Assembly: GCA_020249045.1 (NCBI GenBank)
Contig: JADCGK010000003.1
Coordinates: 17,077 to 81,076, forward strand
DNA length: 64,000 bases
Origin: Azospirillum sp.
Lineage (GTDB): Bacteria > Pseudomonadota > Alphaproteobacteria > CACIAM-22H2
Direction: 5' to 3'
Shown here one piece after another: positions 8,556 to 14,696 of the stretch. The notes beneath the pieces are model-generated. The model saw only the letters and a list, made by a program, of their open reading frames with translations, did no database searches and was not told where the DNA came from. The position numbers were made by a program, and so were the translations under genes. Each line of letters begins with the position of its first letter. Positions within the stretch are counted from its first letter, which is position 1.

Positions 8556-9564
8556 GATGGATGGCATGTCGCAAACGGGGCAAATCGACGACGCGAAAAG
8601 CACCGCGGAACATGCTTTGGAGCGCACGCCGAAGGCGGCCGACGAAACCAAGCGCTTCGAGTTCGTGCACAAGGTCTTCGCGGTTCCCGGCGCGATCTTC
8701 GAACTCGACGACCACACCAACGAACCGGTCTTGAAGCTCGACCTCGGCGATTTGCGCGCGGCGATGACGTTCGAGACGCTGCGCGCGAATTTCGGCCTGA
8801 CGGCGGGCTCGCCCGACGACCGCGCGCTGACGGACGTCGGCAAGGCGTTGGGATTCGTGCGCTGCGTTCGGCCGGGCGACACGATCCCGGCGGAATTGCT
8901 CGACGGCTCGGCGTCCTGGCGGGTCGAACCGCGCCATCTGGCCACCGCCCAAGGGCGGATCACGGCGGGCCTGCTCGCGTGGCTGGGCGAGGGCACCAAA
9001 GCGGAAAGCGCCGTCGAACTGGCCGCCCTCGCGGCCGACGCGGGCGTCAAAGCCAATGTGCAGACGGCCTTCGGCCGCTTGGCCGTGCGCATGGGCCTGC
9101 CCGATGACCGACGCGGTGAAGTCGTCGATGCGGTCGATCGGCTGGCGAACGAACTGTCCTATATCGAGGCATTGCGCGAGAAGGTCGGCCAGACGCGGCG
9201 CGCGGTCGAATTGTTCAAACGTCTGCGCGCGGCCTACAAACGCGAACGCGGGGCGTCGGAAAGTCTGGAGCGGATCGTCCATCTGCTCGAGCGGCCGGTG
9301 AAACGCTACGAAGCGCGCCTTGCCGAAGTCGACGCGCAGACCGGCGAGATCCAGAACACGATCATCAACCTCGCCCGGCAGATCGCCTTCGTTCGCGAGG
9401 CGCGCGATTGGCTGCATCGGGAGATCATGCGCTGGGACGACGTCCTGGAAACCTGGGCTGGGGAATCGGCCGAACCGTCCCACGCCCAGCAACGCAAGAT
9501 CGGCGCGACCTATCGCTTTGCGGCGCGATATTTTCCGCTCGTCGAAGAATGGGTCCACGGCTGA
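8556..9564 (+). CDS. Hypothetical protein with coiled-coil region
   Basis: ATG at 8556 verified. 336 aa. No recognisable catalytic motifs. Directly upstream of, and co-oriented with, the hybrid histidine kinase. Confidence 0.5.
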
Positions 9565-9604
9565 GTTTGCCGGCCGCGACGGGCCGGTTCATAGTCCTCG
9601 AGTC

Positions 9605-11479
9605 ATGTCCGCCGCCGATTCTCCACCGCCCGTGCCGCCGCCCGGAAACCCGCCGGCCGAAGCCGCGCGCGTGCGCGGCTGGTTCGCGGGCCTTGTGGGA
9701 TGCCTTGCGCTAGCGGCGCTGGCCGGCGTTGCGGCACTCGTCGAGCAACCGGGTGCCGTCGAGGCCGCGATCGCGGCAGTACTCTCGGGATTGGGTTGCG
9801 CCGCGGGCCTTGCGCGCGCGTGGCGTGGCGAAGTCGAGCGGCCTTTGGCGCGGCTGGCGCGCGCGGCCGAGGATTTGGCGGGCATCGCACCCGCCGCCGA
9901 TACGGCGCCCCGCGCGGCGATGGAACGTGCGCTCGCCGCCTTGCGCGAAGCGGGGGCCGCGCGCACGCGCGCGGGCCGCGCGGCCGAAAACGCGCGACGT
10001 GCCAAATCGGCGTTCCTGACGGCGATGAGCCACCGGATCCGCACGCCCATGCACGGCATCCTGGGCTTGGTCGAAACCCATGCGGCGGGCGAGATGTCCG
10101 CCGAACGGCGCGCGACGTTGCGCACGGTGCGCCAGTCGGCCGAGAACCTTCTCGCCGTCGTCGACGATCTGGTCGATTACGCGCGCATCGATTCCGATTC
10201 GATCGCCGTCGACCGCCGGGCGACCGACGCGGGCGATCTTCTGGAGCAGGCGGCGGTCAATCTGGCGGGGCTCGCCGAAGCCAAGGGACTGGCGTTGTCG
10301 TGCTTCGTCGATCCCGAAATCGTCGAACGCTTCAAAATCGATCCGTTGCGCGTGCGCCAAGTGCTGTTCAACCTGATCGGCAACGCGATCGGCCGTACGC
10401 AAGCGGGCTTCGTGCATGCGCGCTTGTCGCTGGCGGGCGGACAGTTGATCTTCGCGATCGAGGACAGCGGCGCGGCGCTGGCGCCGGATACGATCGCGCG
10501 TTTGCTCGATCCTTCGGGCGAGCCGGGCGACGGCCTCGCCGCGTTCCGCGCCGGCGCGACGGGGTTGGGCCTGCCAGTGTGCCGGGCGTTGGCCGAACGC
10601 ATGGGCGGACGCATCCGCGTGCAGTCGCGCGAGTCCGGCGGCGCGGTTTTCGCGCTCGAGCTTCCGGCCGAACCGGCCGGCGGCGGCTTGCAGCCTTTGC
10701 CGGCCGCGGACGTGCTGGAAGGCCGGCGCGTGCGGATCGCGGGTGCGGCGGATCCCGCGCATGCGGCGGTGGCGGCCTATCTGATCGCGGCGGGCGCCGC
10801 GATCGTCGGGCCGCGCGACCCCGCCGATCTCGCCATCGCCCTGCCCGGCGCCGGAGATTTCGGTCCGCCCGGTCCCAAGCGACTGCGGTTGACGACGCTG
10901 CCCCCCGTGGGTCCGCCCGAGGAGGCCGATGCGGGCGCCACGCTGTTGCGCCGTTCGGCGATCGTCGCGGCGGCGGCGCGCGCGCTCGATCTCGCCGACG
11001 AAGGGATCGAGGAATCCGACCCCGCGACCTTGCCGCCGTGCGAACCGCCCGCGCGCGACGCCGCGCGCGCGCAAGGCGCGCTCATCCTCGCCGTCGACGA
11101 CCATCCGGTGAACCGCGAGGTCGTGGCCCTGCAACTCGCGCGGTTGGGTTACCTCGCGGACACCGCGGCGAGCGGCGCCCAAGCCTGGACCATGTGGCGC
11201 GCGGAACGCTACGGCCTGATCGTCACCGATCTGCACATGCCCGATTTCGACGGCTTCGAACTCGCCCGGCGCATCCGCGCGGCCGAAATCCAGGAGGACC
11301 GCCCGCGCGTGCCGATCGTCGCGCTGACGGCCGCCACGGGGGCGGAGAACCTCGCGGCCTGCTACGAGGCCGGGATGGACGGCGTATTGGCCAAGCCGCT
11401 GCCGTTCCGGGGGTTGGCCGAAGCCATCCGCCGCTATCTTCCCGCCCGCGCGGACGTCAAAACCAGCCGCGACGCTTGA
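9605..11479 (+). CDS. Membrane-anchored hybrid sensor histidine kinase/response regulator
   Basis: ATG at 9605 verified. Two N-terminal TM segments. H-box SHRIRTPMHGILG. HATPase N/G boxes. A roughly 130-aa Ala/Pro-rich linker. C-terminal REC (ILAVDDHPVNREV...DLHMPDFDGFEL...LAKPL). Confidence 0.8.
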   Translation: MSAADSPPPVPPPGNPPAEAARVRGWFAGLVGCLALAALAGVAALVEQPGAVEAAIAAVLSGLGCAAGLARAWRGEVERPLARLARAAEDLAGIAPAADTAPRAAMERALAALREAGAARTRAGRAAENARRAKSAFLTAMSHRIRTPMHGILGLVETHAAGEMSAERRATLRTVRQSAENLLAVVDDLVDYARIDSDSIAVDRRATDAGDLLEQAAVNLAGLAEAKGLALSCFVDPEIVERFKIDPLRVRQVLFNLIGNAIGRTQAGFVHARLSLAGGQLIFAIEDSGAALAPDTIARLLDPSGEPGDGLAAFRAGATGLGLPVCRALAERMGGRIRVQSRESGGAVFALELPAEPAGGGLQPLPAADVLEGRRVRIAGAADPAHAAVAAYLIAAGAAIVGPRDPADLAIALPGAGDFGPPGPKRLRLTTLPPVGPPEEADAGATLLRRSAIVAAAARALDLADEGIEESDPATLPPCEPPARDAARAQGALILAVDDHPVNREVVALQLARLGYLADTAASGAQAWTMWRAERYGLIVTDLHMPDFDGFELARRIRAAEIQEDRPRVPIVALTAATGAENLAACYEAGMDGVLAKPLPFRGLAEAIRRYLPARADVKTSRDA

Positions 11480-12446
11480 AATAGAGATAGGGCAGCACCG
11501 CCGACGCGGCCATGGCGACGAGCGCCATCGGATAGCCCCACGCCCAGCCGAGTTCGGGCATGTTCGCGAAGTTCATGCCGTAGATCGTACCGAGCAGCGT
11601 CGGCGGCATCAGCACCACCGAGACGACCGAGAAGAGTTTGATGATCCGGTTTTGCTCGATGTTGATCTGGCCGAGCGTCGCGTCGAGCAGGAAGTTGACC
11701 TTGCGCGCGTCGTAATCGGCGTGCTCCATCAACGAGGCGACGTCGCGCGCGATCGACTTGATGCGCGCCTTGATCTCCTTGGTGTGCTTGCGCCCGTCGC
11801 CGTCCAGAACGCTCGCAAGGAAACTCGCCAAACGCTGCAAGCCGAGCATGCTTTCCCGCGCGGTCGAACATAGATCGTCGAGCCGCCCCAGATCGCGCAG
11901 GACCTGCTGCAGGTCGCGCTCCTGCTCGGTTTGCCGCGCGCCCGCGCCGGGCGTCACGAAGATGGCGCGGCTGGTCGCGTCGAGATCGAGGCCGATCCGC
12001 TCCAGAATGTCGGCGAGGCGATCGACGAAGGCTTCGATGAGACCCAACAACGCCTCCTCGCCGGTCGATCCGGCGGTTTGGCGCTGGATCCGCTGCGCGA
12101 AGGCGCGCACCGGCCGCGGGTCGTTGTGGCGCACCGTGACCAGCGCGCGATTGGCGAGGACGAAGGTGAACGCGTCGGCCGCGGGCACGGGTTCGTCCGC
12201 GCGCGCGAGCACCGTCACGGTCATGTAGATCGCCCCGTTTTCGACGTAGTACCGCGCGGACGGTTCGATCGCGCGCATCTCCTCGTGCGTGGGCAGCGCA
12301 AGGCCGTAAGCCGCGTCGACCTTCGCGCGCTCGTCGTCCGTCGGCGCGAATAGATCGATCCACAACGCGCCCGCGGGCAACGCATCGGCCGCAGCGATTT
12401 CCCGCCGCTCCAAACCCGCCGCCGTCGGTACGAACGCCACGATCAT
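11457..12446 (-). CDS. corA: Magnesium/cobalt transporter CorA
   Basis: Start MIVAFVPT verified (cat at 12444-12446). C-terminal YGMNF motif and two TM helices. 329 aa. Confidence 0.85.
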   Translation of the reverse strand: MIVAFVPTAAGLERREIAAADALPAGALWIDLFAPTDDERAKVDAAYGLALPTHEEMRAIEPSARYYVENGAIYMTVTVLARADEPVPAADAFTFVLANRALVTVRHNDPRPVRAFAQRIQRQTAGSTGEEALLGLIEAFVDRLADILERIGLDLDATSRAIFVTPGAGARQTEQERDLQQVLRDLGRLDDLCSTARESMLGLQRLASFLASVLDGDGRKHTKEIKARIKSIARDVASLMEHADYDARKVNFLLDATLGQINIEQNRIIKLFSVVSVVLMPPTLLGTIYGMNFANMPELGWAWGYPMALVAMAASAVLPYLYFKRRGWF

Positions 12447-12586
12447 GCCCTGGCCGTGCCACAAGCCCGGCACCCGCGCAACAGCAACCGGGCATCGCTG
12501 TAACCGAGTTACCCACAATCGCTTGTGGGGAGGGCCTTGACGGGCCCCTGCCCGTTGCTTCACTATATGTTGTATAAGCTGTGGAG

Positions 12587-12595
12587 TTATCCACA
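12587..12595. promoter_or_regulatory. Perfect DnaA box TTATCCACA in the gcrA promoter region, embedded in a TGTGGA-N4-TCCACA palindrome (12580-12595)
   Basis: Read directly from the sequence: gctgtggagTTATCCACAaaccc, about 50 nt upstream of the gcrA ATG. Confidence 0.45.
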
Positions 12596-12644
12596 AACCC
12601 TAGCCAACCGGGTAAAACCCGCCTGAAATCAAGGGGATGGCGTG

Positions 12645-13118
12645 ATGGATTGGACACCGGAGCAGATCTCGGAGCTGACCCGCCTGTGGGGTGAGGGTTT
12701 GACGACCGCCGAGATCGGCAAGCGCTTGGGAATCTCGAAAAACGCCGTCGTGGGTAAGGCCCATCGCCTGCACTTGCCCGCGCGTCCGTCGCCGATCAAG
12801 CGCACCGGCCCGCGTCCGCAAGTTTTCCGGCAGACCGCGACGGTGCGCACCGCCCCACCCCGCCTAGCCGCGCCGCGGCCGGCGCCCGCCGTACAGCCGA
12901 CCTCGGCACAGGCGCTGCGGGCGCTGGCCAATCAGCCTTCGGCCAAGCGTCTGCCGATGATGGCGCTGAACTCGTCGACCTGCCGTTGGCCGATCGGCGA
13001 TCCCGGCGATGCCGAGTTCCATTTCTGCGGCGAGCGCGCGATCGACGGCAAGCCCTATTGCTCGGCGCACGCGTCGATCGCCTACGTCAAGGTGAAGCCG
13101 AGGACCGAGGCCGCCTGA
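12645..13118 (+). CDS. gcrA: Cell-cycle transcriptional regulator GcrA
   Basis: MDWTPEQISELTRLWGEGLTTAEIGKRLGISKNAVVGKAHRL ... CRWPIGDP...FCG...YCSAH is a hallmark GcrA N- and C-terminal signature. ATG at 12645 with AAGGGGA 8 nt upstream; the track ORF begins at the GTG at 12642. Confidence 0.85.
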   Translation: MDWTPEQISELTRLWGEGLTTAEIGKRLGISKNAVVGKAHRLHLPARPSPIKRTGPRPQVFRQTATVRTAPPRLAAPRPAPAVQPTSAQALRALANQPSAKRLPMMALNSSTCRWPIGDPGDAEFHFCGERAIDGKPYCSAHASIAYVKVKPRTEAA

Positions 13119-13205: not shown

Positions 13206-14696
13206 ATGACAGATCCGGGCCTGCTGATCGCCAAAGGCGGCGAACCGCACCGTCTGCTGCTGAAATTCGCCAACCGTCACGGCTTGATCGCCGGCGCCAC
13301 GGGCACGGGCAAAACCGTGACGCTGCGCGCGATGGCCGAGGCGTTGTCGCTGGAAGGCGTGCCGGTCTTCGTCGCCGACGTGAAGGGCGATCTGTCGGGC
13401 CTCGCCAAACCGGGCGCCGAGAACGCGAAGTTCCGCACGCGCGCCGACGAACTGGGCATGCCCGATTACGATTTCGCCGCGTGCCCGACCGTGTTCTGGG
13501 ACGTCTTCGGCGAGAACGGCCATCCGCTTCGCGCGACGATTTCCGAGATGGGCCCGCTGCTGCTCGCGCGGTTGCTCGAACTCAACGAAACCCAAGCGGG
13601 GGTTCTGCAACTCGTCTTCAAGGTGGCCGACGACGAAGGCCTGCTGCTGATCGACCTCAAGGATCTGCGTGCGATGCTGACGCACGTCGCCGAGAACGCG
13701 GCCGAGTATCGCGAGCGCTACGGCAACGTTTCCTCGGCGTCGGTGGGCGCCATCCAGCGCGGCCTTCTGGCGCTCGAAGCGCAAGGCGGCGACAAATTCT
13801 TCGGCGAGCCCGAACTCGACATCGCGCATCTGCTGGGCGTGGGCGAGGACGGGCGCGGGATCGTGTCGGTGCTGGCGGCGGAGATTCTGTTCCAGCGGCC
13901 GAAGCTCTACGCGACGTTTTTGCTGTGGCTGCTGTCGGAATTGTTCGAGCATCTGCCGGAAGCCGGCGACGTCGCCAAGCCCAAACTCGTCTTCTTCTTC
14001 GACGAGGCGCATCTGCTGTTTGCCGACGCGCCTAAAGCGTTGGTCGAGAAGGTGGAGCAAGTCGTCCGCCTGATCCGCTCGAAGGGCGTGGGCGTCTATT
14101 TCGTCACCCAAAATCCGCTCGATGTGCCCGAAACCGTGCTGGGCCAGCTCGGCAACCGCGTGCAACACGCGTTGCGCGCCTTCACCCCGCGCGATCAGAA
14201 GGCCGTCAAAGCCGCCGCGCAAACCTTCCGCGCGCGCCCGGGCGTCGACACCCAAACGGCGATCCTCGAATTGGGCGTCGGCGAGGCGTTGGTGTCCTTC
14301 CTGGATGAGAAGGGCGTGCCCGTGCCGGTCGAACGCGCGCGCGTGGTCCCGCCGCGCACGCGGTTGGGGCCGCTCGACGCTTCCGAACGCCTGGGTGCGA
14401 TCAACAATTCGCCGCTTTACGGCGTGTACGAGGAAGCCGTCGAGCGCGAAAGCGCCTACGAAAGACTGAAGGGCGGGGCTGCGGGCAACCCGGCGGCGGC
14501 GGGCGGCATCGCGGGAACGCTCGGCACGATCTTCGGCGGCGGCACCGTCGGCCGGCCGGGCGCGCGCGGCCGCGCGCAGCCCAAATCCTTCGGCGAGCAG
14601 ATCGCCGCGTCGGTCGCCCGGTCGGTCGCCTCGTCGGTCGGTCGGCAGATCGGCGCGCGCATCGTGCGCGGCGTTTTGGGTTCGATCCTCAAATGA
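13206..14696 (+). CDS. DUF853-family (YjgR/HerA-like) P-loop NTPase
   Basis: ATG at 13206 verified. Walker A GATGTGKT, Walker [10 protein letters not shown]. 496 aa. Gly-rich disordered C-terminus. Confidence 0.8.

Follow-up and report, generated by a model that had tools for sequence, protein, structure and literature searches.

We analysed the region upstream of gcrA in a 64-kb stretch of Azospirillum sp. DNA (contig JADCGK010000003.1 of assembly GCA_020249045.1; this whole stretch is called the window below). The alphaproteobacterial cell cycle is ordered by a set of master regulators, GcrA and DnaA among them. The GcrA protein encoded here has 96% identity with its counterpart in Tagaea sp. 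CACIAM 22H2 and 82-89% identity with those of other Tagaea metagenome-assembled genomes (MAGs). The plus-strand gene gcrA is separated from the divergent minus-strand gene corA by an intergenic interval of 195 nt (12447-12641). This interval comprises the gcrA promoter and leader of a Tagaea-like bacterium within the Rhodospirillales. Its G+C content is 59.5%, against 68.6% for the whole window, in agreement with an initial annotation of this DNA that had described the region as AT-richer. Within this interval, the core promoter is flanked by two putative DnaA boxes, one on each side (Table 1).

Table 1. Features of the corA-gcrA intergenic region and the genes that border it
Feature	Position	Strand	Remarks
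corA (Mg2+ transporter)	11457..12446	-	Pfam CorA, 7.5e-54; left edge of the intergenic region, divergent from gcrA
Fifth CCACA core, GTGCCACAAG	12459..12463	+	13 nt from the corA start; four mismatches to the DnaA box
Box 1, DnaA-type box TTACCCACA	12509-12517; with AG...A flanks 12507..12518	+	One mismatch, at position 4
Palindrome 1, CCCACAA-tcgc-TTGTGGG	12512..12529	.	Left arm is the box 1 core; right arm is the conserved TTGTGG (12523-12528)
-35 element, CTTGACG	12536..12542 (CTTGAC 12536-12541)	+	TTGAC kept in 5/5 Tagaea sequences
16-nt core-promoter element, TCACTATATGTTGTAT	12560..12575	+	Family consensus CTACyGTATnTTGTRG
Palindrome 2, TGTGGA-gtta-TCCACA	12580..12595	.	Right arm is the box 2 core; left arm not conserved
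Box 2, perfect DnaA box TTATCCACA	12587-12595; with AG...A flanks 12585..12596	+	Matches the consensus
Shine-Dalgarno sequence, AAGGGGA	12631..12637	+	7 nt from the gcrA ATG; does not vary among the aligned Tagaea sequences
gcrA coding sequence, 157 aa	12645..13118	+	Pfam GcrA PF07750, 3.9e-38, full length

DnaA boxes were defined by the 9-mer TTATCCACA, with TT[A/T]TNCACA as a relaxed form and [TC][TCG][AG]TCCACA as the Caulobacter consensus (PMC2877005). Box 2 is a perfect match, unique within the window, and sits in palindrome 2 exactly where the initial annotation had placed it. That annotation recognized a single DnaA box and overlooked box 1, which forms the left arm of palindrome 1. The two boxes lie on the same strand and are the sole matches with at most one mismatch in the 64 kb. 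In simulations that used the region's own first-order composition, a perfect box had a probability of ~0.0008 and two boxes with at most one mismatch had a probability of ~0.0006. Both boxes point towards gcrA and share the extended form AGTTA(C/T)CCACAA. Box 2 fits the Caulobacter consensus and box 1 deviates from it at the T preceding CCACA. The five CCACA/TGTGG cores of the region form the densest cluster of such cores in the window, where the background is one per kb. The fifth of these cores, close to corA, is seen in the window and in one Tagaea relative (L022) only and is probably not functional.

We compared 160 gcrA loci from genomes and metagenomes, which cover Tagaea, MAGs of Rhodospirillales and other Alphaproteobacteria, and many Acetobacteraceae (including Acidocella, Acidiphilium, Roseomonas, Belnapia, and Asaia). 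Among the first 80 loci, we identified 51 copies of TTNTCCACA in 15.6 kb of gcrA-upstream DNA and 10 copies in 461 kb of flanking DNA, an enrichment of about 150-fold. The gcrA strand carries 46 of the 51 upstream copies, so that about 90% point towards gcrA. Comparison of related gcrA promoters had been proposed as a check in the initial annotation, and it reveals a conserved DnaA-type box: at least one is present in 96 of the 124 non-identical loci that share the core-promoter element described below.

The boxes also keep to fixed positions, counted here from the first base of this element. On the plus strand they occur at -61 +/-2 in some 60 loci, most of them Acetobacteraceae. In Tagaea and a few others they occur at -51/-50, the class to which box 1 of the window belongs. 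A further class at +27, which includes box 2, comprises about 14 loci (Tagaea, L003-L007, L082-L084, and L116). Apparent '+27' boxes of L061, L114, and L141 were excluded as mis-anchored, an upstream palindrome unit having been scored as the core element. The two upstream classes are 10-11 bp apart, or one helical turn, with box 1 of the window nearer to the promoter than the Acetobacteraceae box. Both boxes are invariant in the five Tagaea sequences, and their flanks diverge. The conserved blocks of this alignment are box 1 with the adjoining TTGTGG, the -35 element, the 16-nt element, TGGAG-box 2-A.C.CTAG, and the Shine-Dalgarno sequence, with divergence between them. Taken as a whole, the enrichment, orientation bias, and fixed positions give strong comparative support to the initial proposal that DnaA may control gcrA here as it does in Caulobacter.

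Conservation extends beyond the 9-mer. Across 60 dereplicated sites, the extended form AGTT.TCCACAA has A at -2 in 66% and G at -1 in 81%, and 28 of the 60 boxes continue into CAA-N4-TTG, giving a module that can be written AGTTNTCCACAA-N4-TTG. Neither the AG prefix nor the suffix is seen at the 14 background copies of TTNTCCACA in flanking DNA.

Several sister lineages of Tagaea have a denser arrangement of boxes. Two to three full DnaA boxes are present in the leader, between the -10 element and the ribosome-binding site, in L004, L005, L083, and L084 (about -52 to -19 from the ATG) and in L003 and L082. These boxes include TTATCCACA, TTGTCCACA, and the inverted TGTTGATAA; the ATCAACA within the latter is a variant that is also present at Caulobacter gcrA. 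Such clusters are hard to read except as DnaA sites. They leave no room for another promoter, and DnaA would cover the whole leader DNA.

It is conceivable that the boxes serve the divergent corA gene instead, or that they are non-regulatory sites that titrate DnaA or simply chance matches. Only 63 nt separate box 1 from the start codon of corA, and the two genes share the intergenic region. However, in Acetobacteraceae a different gene stands upstream of gcrA, is co-directional with it, and ends just 5' of the box. The box persists in these lineages without a corA neighbour, at a fixed distance to the gcrA element and in the same orientation, and thus follows gcrA. A titration locus of the datA type would need more than two boxes. 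Chance is countered by the low probability of the pair (~6e-4) and by the recurrence of the box in 96/124 orthologous promoters. We consider an explanation of this kind scarcely credible.

The sigma70-like -35 element CTTGAC of the initial annotation is present, but a scan of 12300-12800 for E. coli-type -35/-10 promoters and terminators returned nothing canonical, and CTTGAC is not followed by a TATAAT-like hexamer at 16-18 nt. We therefore delimited the core promoter by conservation. It includes a 16-nt element that scores above 7 with a position weight matrix (PWM) in 124 of the 151 non-identical regions compared upstream of gcrA; among shuffled controls, the 95th percentile was 3.9 and the highest score 11.5. 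Nearly invariant positions are A3, C4, T7, A8, T9, T11, and G13. The copy at gcrA is the top PWM match in the 64 kb, where every other position on either strand, barring its own reverse strand, scores at most 5.2. The PWM scan detected no further copies in the window or in 693 kb of locus flanks, so that no regulon could be defined. We also asked whether the element might be an operator with twofold symmetry or might form a hairpin, and dropped both ideas because no palindromic covariation was found (positions 2/15, 1/16, and 5/12).

In 59 of the 124 loci, TTG[AC] begins 21-23 nt before the 16-nt element. This spacing places the -10 element at positions 2-7 of the 16-nt element, which read TACyGT in the family and CACTAT here. 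The -10 element of the window is thus likely CACTAT (12561-12566, spacer 18) or TATGTT (12566-12571), and the transcription start site (TSS) is predicted at about 12572-12579. The start of box 1 precedes the core element by 51 nt, and the box lies 19 nt upstream of the -35 element, at about -57 to -65 from the predicted TSS, or -61 to -69 with the alternative -10. Box 2 starts 27 nt past the start of the core element, at a predicted +9 to +24, and would thus fall in the first 10-25 bp to be transcribed. The initial annotation had placed the perfect box in the promoter; it is instead downstream of the likely -10 element, in DNA predicted to be transcribed early, and it is the imperfect box 1 that would take the Caulobacter-like activator position.

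The 16-nt element covers both the -10 element and the predicted start. It is a conserved feature of gcrA in the Rhodospirillales and the Acetobacteraceae alike, and the bases that never vary (C at the third position of the -10, followed by TAT.T.G) exceed the needs of a sigma-70 -10 element. A gcrA-specific regulator may bind here, at the place that a CtrA half-site occupies in Caulobacter. A separate clade of alphaproteobacterial MAGs (L021, L023, L026, L030, L034, L038, L056, L058, L066, L069, and L078) keeps the 16-nt element and has no DnaA box. Members of this clade have a well-spaced -35 element, TTGCAT, 16 nt before positions 7-12 of the element (TATATT), and could represent a natural DnaA-independent version of the promoter. 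The supplements of a Gluconobacter oxydans RNA sequencing study (PMC5756330) contain no gcrA entry or matching promoter.

Both palindromes reported initially are present in the sequence. The patterns TGTGG-N6-CCACA and CCACA-N6-TGTGG occur once each in the window, against 0.03 and 0.01 expected, and both palindromes fold better as DNA hairpins than shuffled sequences do (palindrome 1, -6.9 kcal/mol, z -3.2; palindrome 2, -5.0 kcal/mol, z -3.6). Palindrome 2 lies within the predicted transcribed leader, where it might act as a 5'-untranslated RNA stem-loop in stability or translation; palindrome 1 might correspondingly form a DNA cruciform or a hairpin in a corA leader. The stems are short (6-7 bp), however, and the relatives do not preserve the second one. 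Its left arm reads TATGG in L022 and L081, CGTGG in L001, and AGTGG in L002, which weakens the stem, and the arm that forms box 2 remains unchanged. No match to Rfam was obtained for 12300-12800 at E <= 1. The missing compensatory changes and the empty Rfam search make an RNA stem at palindrome 2 unlikely. Palindrome 1 lies upstream of the -35 element and recurs beside co-directional upstream genes, so it is not a corA leader element. Structured nucleic acid is therefore a highly improbable account of the two palindromes. An additional inverted repeat, GTAAC-cga-GTTAC (12500-12512), overlaps the 5' end of box 1 and was dropped, as it is not conserved in L022, L081, L001, or L002.

The initial annotation had also suggested a factor that binds the palindromes and a wider search for them. 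The outcome differs between the two. TGTGG-N6-CCACA, the pattern of palindrome 2, occurs in none of the other 160 regions upstream of gcrA. In contrast, CCACAA-N4-TTGTGG, the pattern of palindrome 1, is present in 19 of these 160 regions and in none of 654 kb of DNA elsewhere. The right arm of palindrome 1 is thus constrained and recurs in distant gcrA promoters, and within Tagaea both arms are invariant around a variable 4-nt spacer. A second unit resembling CCACAA-N4-TTGTGG is found about 27-28 nt upstream of the main box in several Acetobacteraceae, namely L061, L114, L141, L126, L020, and L080, about three helical turns away and at a spacing equal to that between the core element and box 2 in Tagaea. 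Some of these second units have no TTNT prefix and hence are not DnaA boxes.

These observations raise the possibility that a dimeric factor other than DnaA recognizes the 16-bp CCACAA-N4-TTGTGG, instead of or alongside DnaA. The DnaA box would then be the left half of a composite operator that joins replication to nutrient or redox signals. Besides the distribution of the palindrome and the CAA-N4-TTG that follows nearly half of the dereplicated boxes, the bases past TGTGG are mostly T, G, or C rather than the A.AA of a full inverted DnaA box. The right arm of palindrome 1 in the window does not extend into a full inverted box. In some Acetobacteraceae the palindrome unit is found without the TTNT prefix (for example ACCACAAGATTTTGTGG in L061).

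The best named candidate for such a factor is the response regulator NtrX. In Sinorhizobium meliloti, phosphorylated NtrX binds the gcrA, dnaA, ctrA, and ftsZ1 promoters through CAAN2-5TTG and represses gcrA (PMC9223101). NtrX operators are known from these promoters and from the ntrY promoter of Brucella abortus, and CAA-TCGC-TTG lies within palindrome 1 of the window. The centre of this palindrome (CAATCGCTTG, 12516-12525) is the only CAA-N2-5-TTG match in the region, a low-information pattern for which one chance match is expected per ~1 kb given its shortness and variable spacer. In contrast to the NtrX operators, the arms in the window are longer (CCACAA/TTGTGG), they overlap a DnaA box, and the spacer is fixed at 4 nt. 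The published NtrX motif is too degenerate for sequence alone to assign membership. The R. sphaeroides-type NtrX motif, GCA-N9-TGC, is absent from 12447-12641.

Against a dimeric operator, conservation across the sites is strongly asymmetric. The left side, AGTTNTCCACA, is near-invariant, but the right arm is found in only about half of the sites. A large Acidocella-type group (TCCACAGAAAAGGACTCGG) retains the box and has GAAAAGGACTCGG in place of the right arm. Moreover, the sister lineages that pair the box with complete inverted boxes (TGTTGATAA) indicate that inverted DnaA sites do occur in these promoters. Because the Acidocella-type group keeps the box without the right arm and the NtrX motif is very degenerate, DnaA is the common denominator. 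The right arm of palindrome 1 could be a weak inverted CCACA core that aids DnaA oligomerization or the half-site of a second factor. A palindrome-binding partner alongside DnaA may exist but is not required; the broader proposal of a dimeric factor, NtrX included, is one that we regard as unlikely but worth keeping in view.

We also looked for sites of the other cell cycle regulators. The interval contains no GANTC site (window average, 1.7 per kb), as had been noted initially, and no TTAA, TTAAC, or TTAA-N7-TTAA that would mark a CtrA site on either strand. Relatives differ with regard to GANTC. A GACTC overlaps the -35 element in L001 and L002 (CTTGACTC) and in L003-L009. GANTC also lies no more than 25 nt past the box in 27 of the 60 dereplicated sites, typically 5-20 nt after it (for example TCCACAGAAAAGGACTCGG in L043), and is about 5-fold more frequent near relatives' boxes than chance by a rough hand estimate from base composition. 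This association hints at methylation or GcrA feedback acting on gcrA in those lineages.

The genes around gcrA provide further context. A HerA-like ATPase gene (13206-14696, plus strand; Pfam HerA_C, 1.9e-218) is found directly 3' of gcrA. Judged by the size and position of open reading frames (ORFs), the corA-gcrA-herA order is apparently retained in Tagaea L022 and L001, with a similar-sized minus-strand ORF 5' and an ORF of ~500 aa 3' of gcrA. Just upstream of corA is a gene for a putative large hybrid histidine kinase (9320-11479, plus strand), in whose translation a HisKA-like H-box, an ATPase domain, and a C-terminal receiver were recognized by eye.

The arrangement resembles that of Caulobacter gcrA, a gene switched on by DnaA and repressed by CtrA. 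Two publications (PMC8203912 and PMC3193534) state that transcription of Caulobacter gcrA needs DnaA and that its promoter is bound in vitro by purified His6-DnaA, and they credit the original work to Hottes 2005 and Collier 2006. The ADP-bound form, DnaA-ADP, is the activating species proposed for this gene (PMC8203912). Relative to the mapped Caulobacter TSS, DnaA motifs are located at -53 (GTCCACA, minus strand) and -75 (ATCAACA), and a CtrA half-site is located at -12 (Zhou et al. 2015, PMC4287350 supplements). In both organisms, the same gene thus has DnaA-type motifs upstream of its core promoter. Since the Caulobacter motifs are at -53 and -75, box 1, at about -57 to -69 from a predicted TSS, would fall in a Caulobacter-like activator zone.

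Several features set the window apart from Caulobacter. First, its boxes are much nearer to the E. coli consensus, one being perfect and the other having one mismatch. Second, both boxes point towards the gene, whereas the -53 motif of Caulobacter is on the opposite strand. Third, the best box is downstream of the -10 element and has no Caulobacter counterpart. Finally, no CtrA half-site covers the -10 element; the 16-nt element that is confined to gcrA stands there instead.

Parallels extend to more distant bacteria. DnaA-controlled promoters of E. coli and B. subtilis include those of dnaA itself (autoregulation), nrdAB, lambda pR, and sda/ywlC. These promoters likewise have high-affinity TTATCCACA 9-mers within or beside them, but the target here is an alphaproteobacterial cell cycle regulator. 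DnaA-regulated promoters combine strong boxes with weaker ones, and the position of the boxes relative to the core promoter decides the outcome (reviewed in PMC8203912). We could match the combination found here, a box at about -60 and a box at about +15 in the same orientation and 78 bp apart, to no described promoter.

We consider it probable that the two boxes of the window are functional DnaA sites that control gcrA, and the arrangement looks like the known Caulobacter link from DnaA to GcrA rather than a new kind of system. A number of points weigh against this assignment. The TSS is a prediction, and the two -10 assignments, either of which is possible, lie 5 nt apart. The 160 loci share phylogeny, so that their counts are not independent events. 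The conserved module is larger than the DnaA 9-mer, and its AG prefix and CAA-N4-TTG suffix are not obviously explained by DnaA alone. In other bacteria, a DnaA box placed beyond the start is usually repressive, and the simple activation logic of Caulobacter may therefore not transfer. A tblastn search with E. coli DnaA as the query found no dnaA match in the window or the 160 loci. Finally, a Caulobacter-derived matrix gave no significant gcrA DnaA site in Gluconobacter, Acidiphilium, or Granulibacter (z 0.45-1.05), and gcrA DnaA sites were reported not to be conserved at the taxonomic level (Brilli et al. 2010). That analysis used 2010-era genomes, and its authors themselves described the matrix as low in specificity. 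Our literature search found no later paper that describes this gcrA DnaA-box footprint and nothing specific on the oriC boxes of the Tagaea/Acetobacteraceae group.

If the boxes are functional, DnaA would bind both of them through its domain IV, and transcription of gcrA would thereby depend on how much initiator is present and in which state. When bound at box 1, upstream, DnaA would help RNA polymerase at a poor -10 element, an activation of the Caulobacter kind. The analogy with Caulobacter, the position of box 1, and its helical phasing suggest this activating role, and the lack of a canonical sigma-70 promoter fits a need for an activator. At high DnaA occupancy, the perfect downstream box 2 and the weak inverted CCACA cores would limit or time transcription. 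This limiting role is suggested by the position of box 2 and by general experience of boxes downstream of promoters. We hold the combination of activation from box 1 and damping from box 2 tentatively, and lean slightly away from it.

Many Rhodospirillales and Acetobacteraceae lack parts of the CtrA phosphorelay. A more speculative proposal, which we consider rather improbable, is that the gcrA promoter in these groups is a composite switch of three parts. First, a strong DnaA box may be joined directly to an operator, CCACAA-N4-TTGTGG, at which a second, dimeric factor (NtrX-like or other) would bind. Second, a GANTC site for CcrM may often adjoin this unit. Third, the 16-nt element confined to gcrA may replace the CtrA operator of Caulobacter and serve as a repressor binding site. 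In Tagaea, the perfect box at +27 would be an addition to this switch, so that DnaA would act on it both positively and negatively.

To our knowledge, a direct link between DnaA and gcrA has so far been demonstrated in Caulobacter only. In the Rhodospirillales and Acetobacteraceae, most gcrA promoters have a near-consensus box whose position and orientation are fixed, and this footprint argues that the link is old and widespread. It also provides precise candidate sites in lineages in which the CtrA branch is reduced. The downstream box of Tagaea, the CCACAA-N4-TTGTGG module, and the 16-nt gcrA-only element suggest additional inputs that have not been described. These features would refine a known circuit and leave its general picture unchanged.

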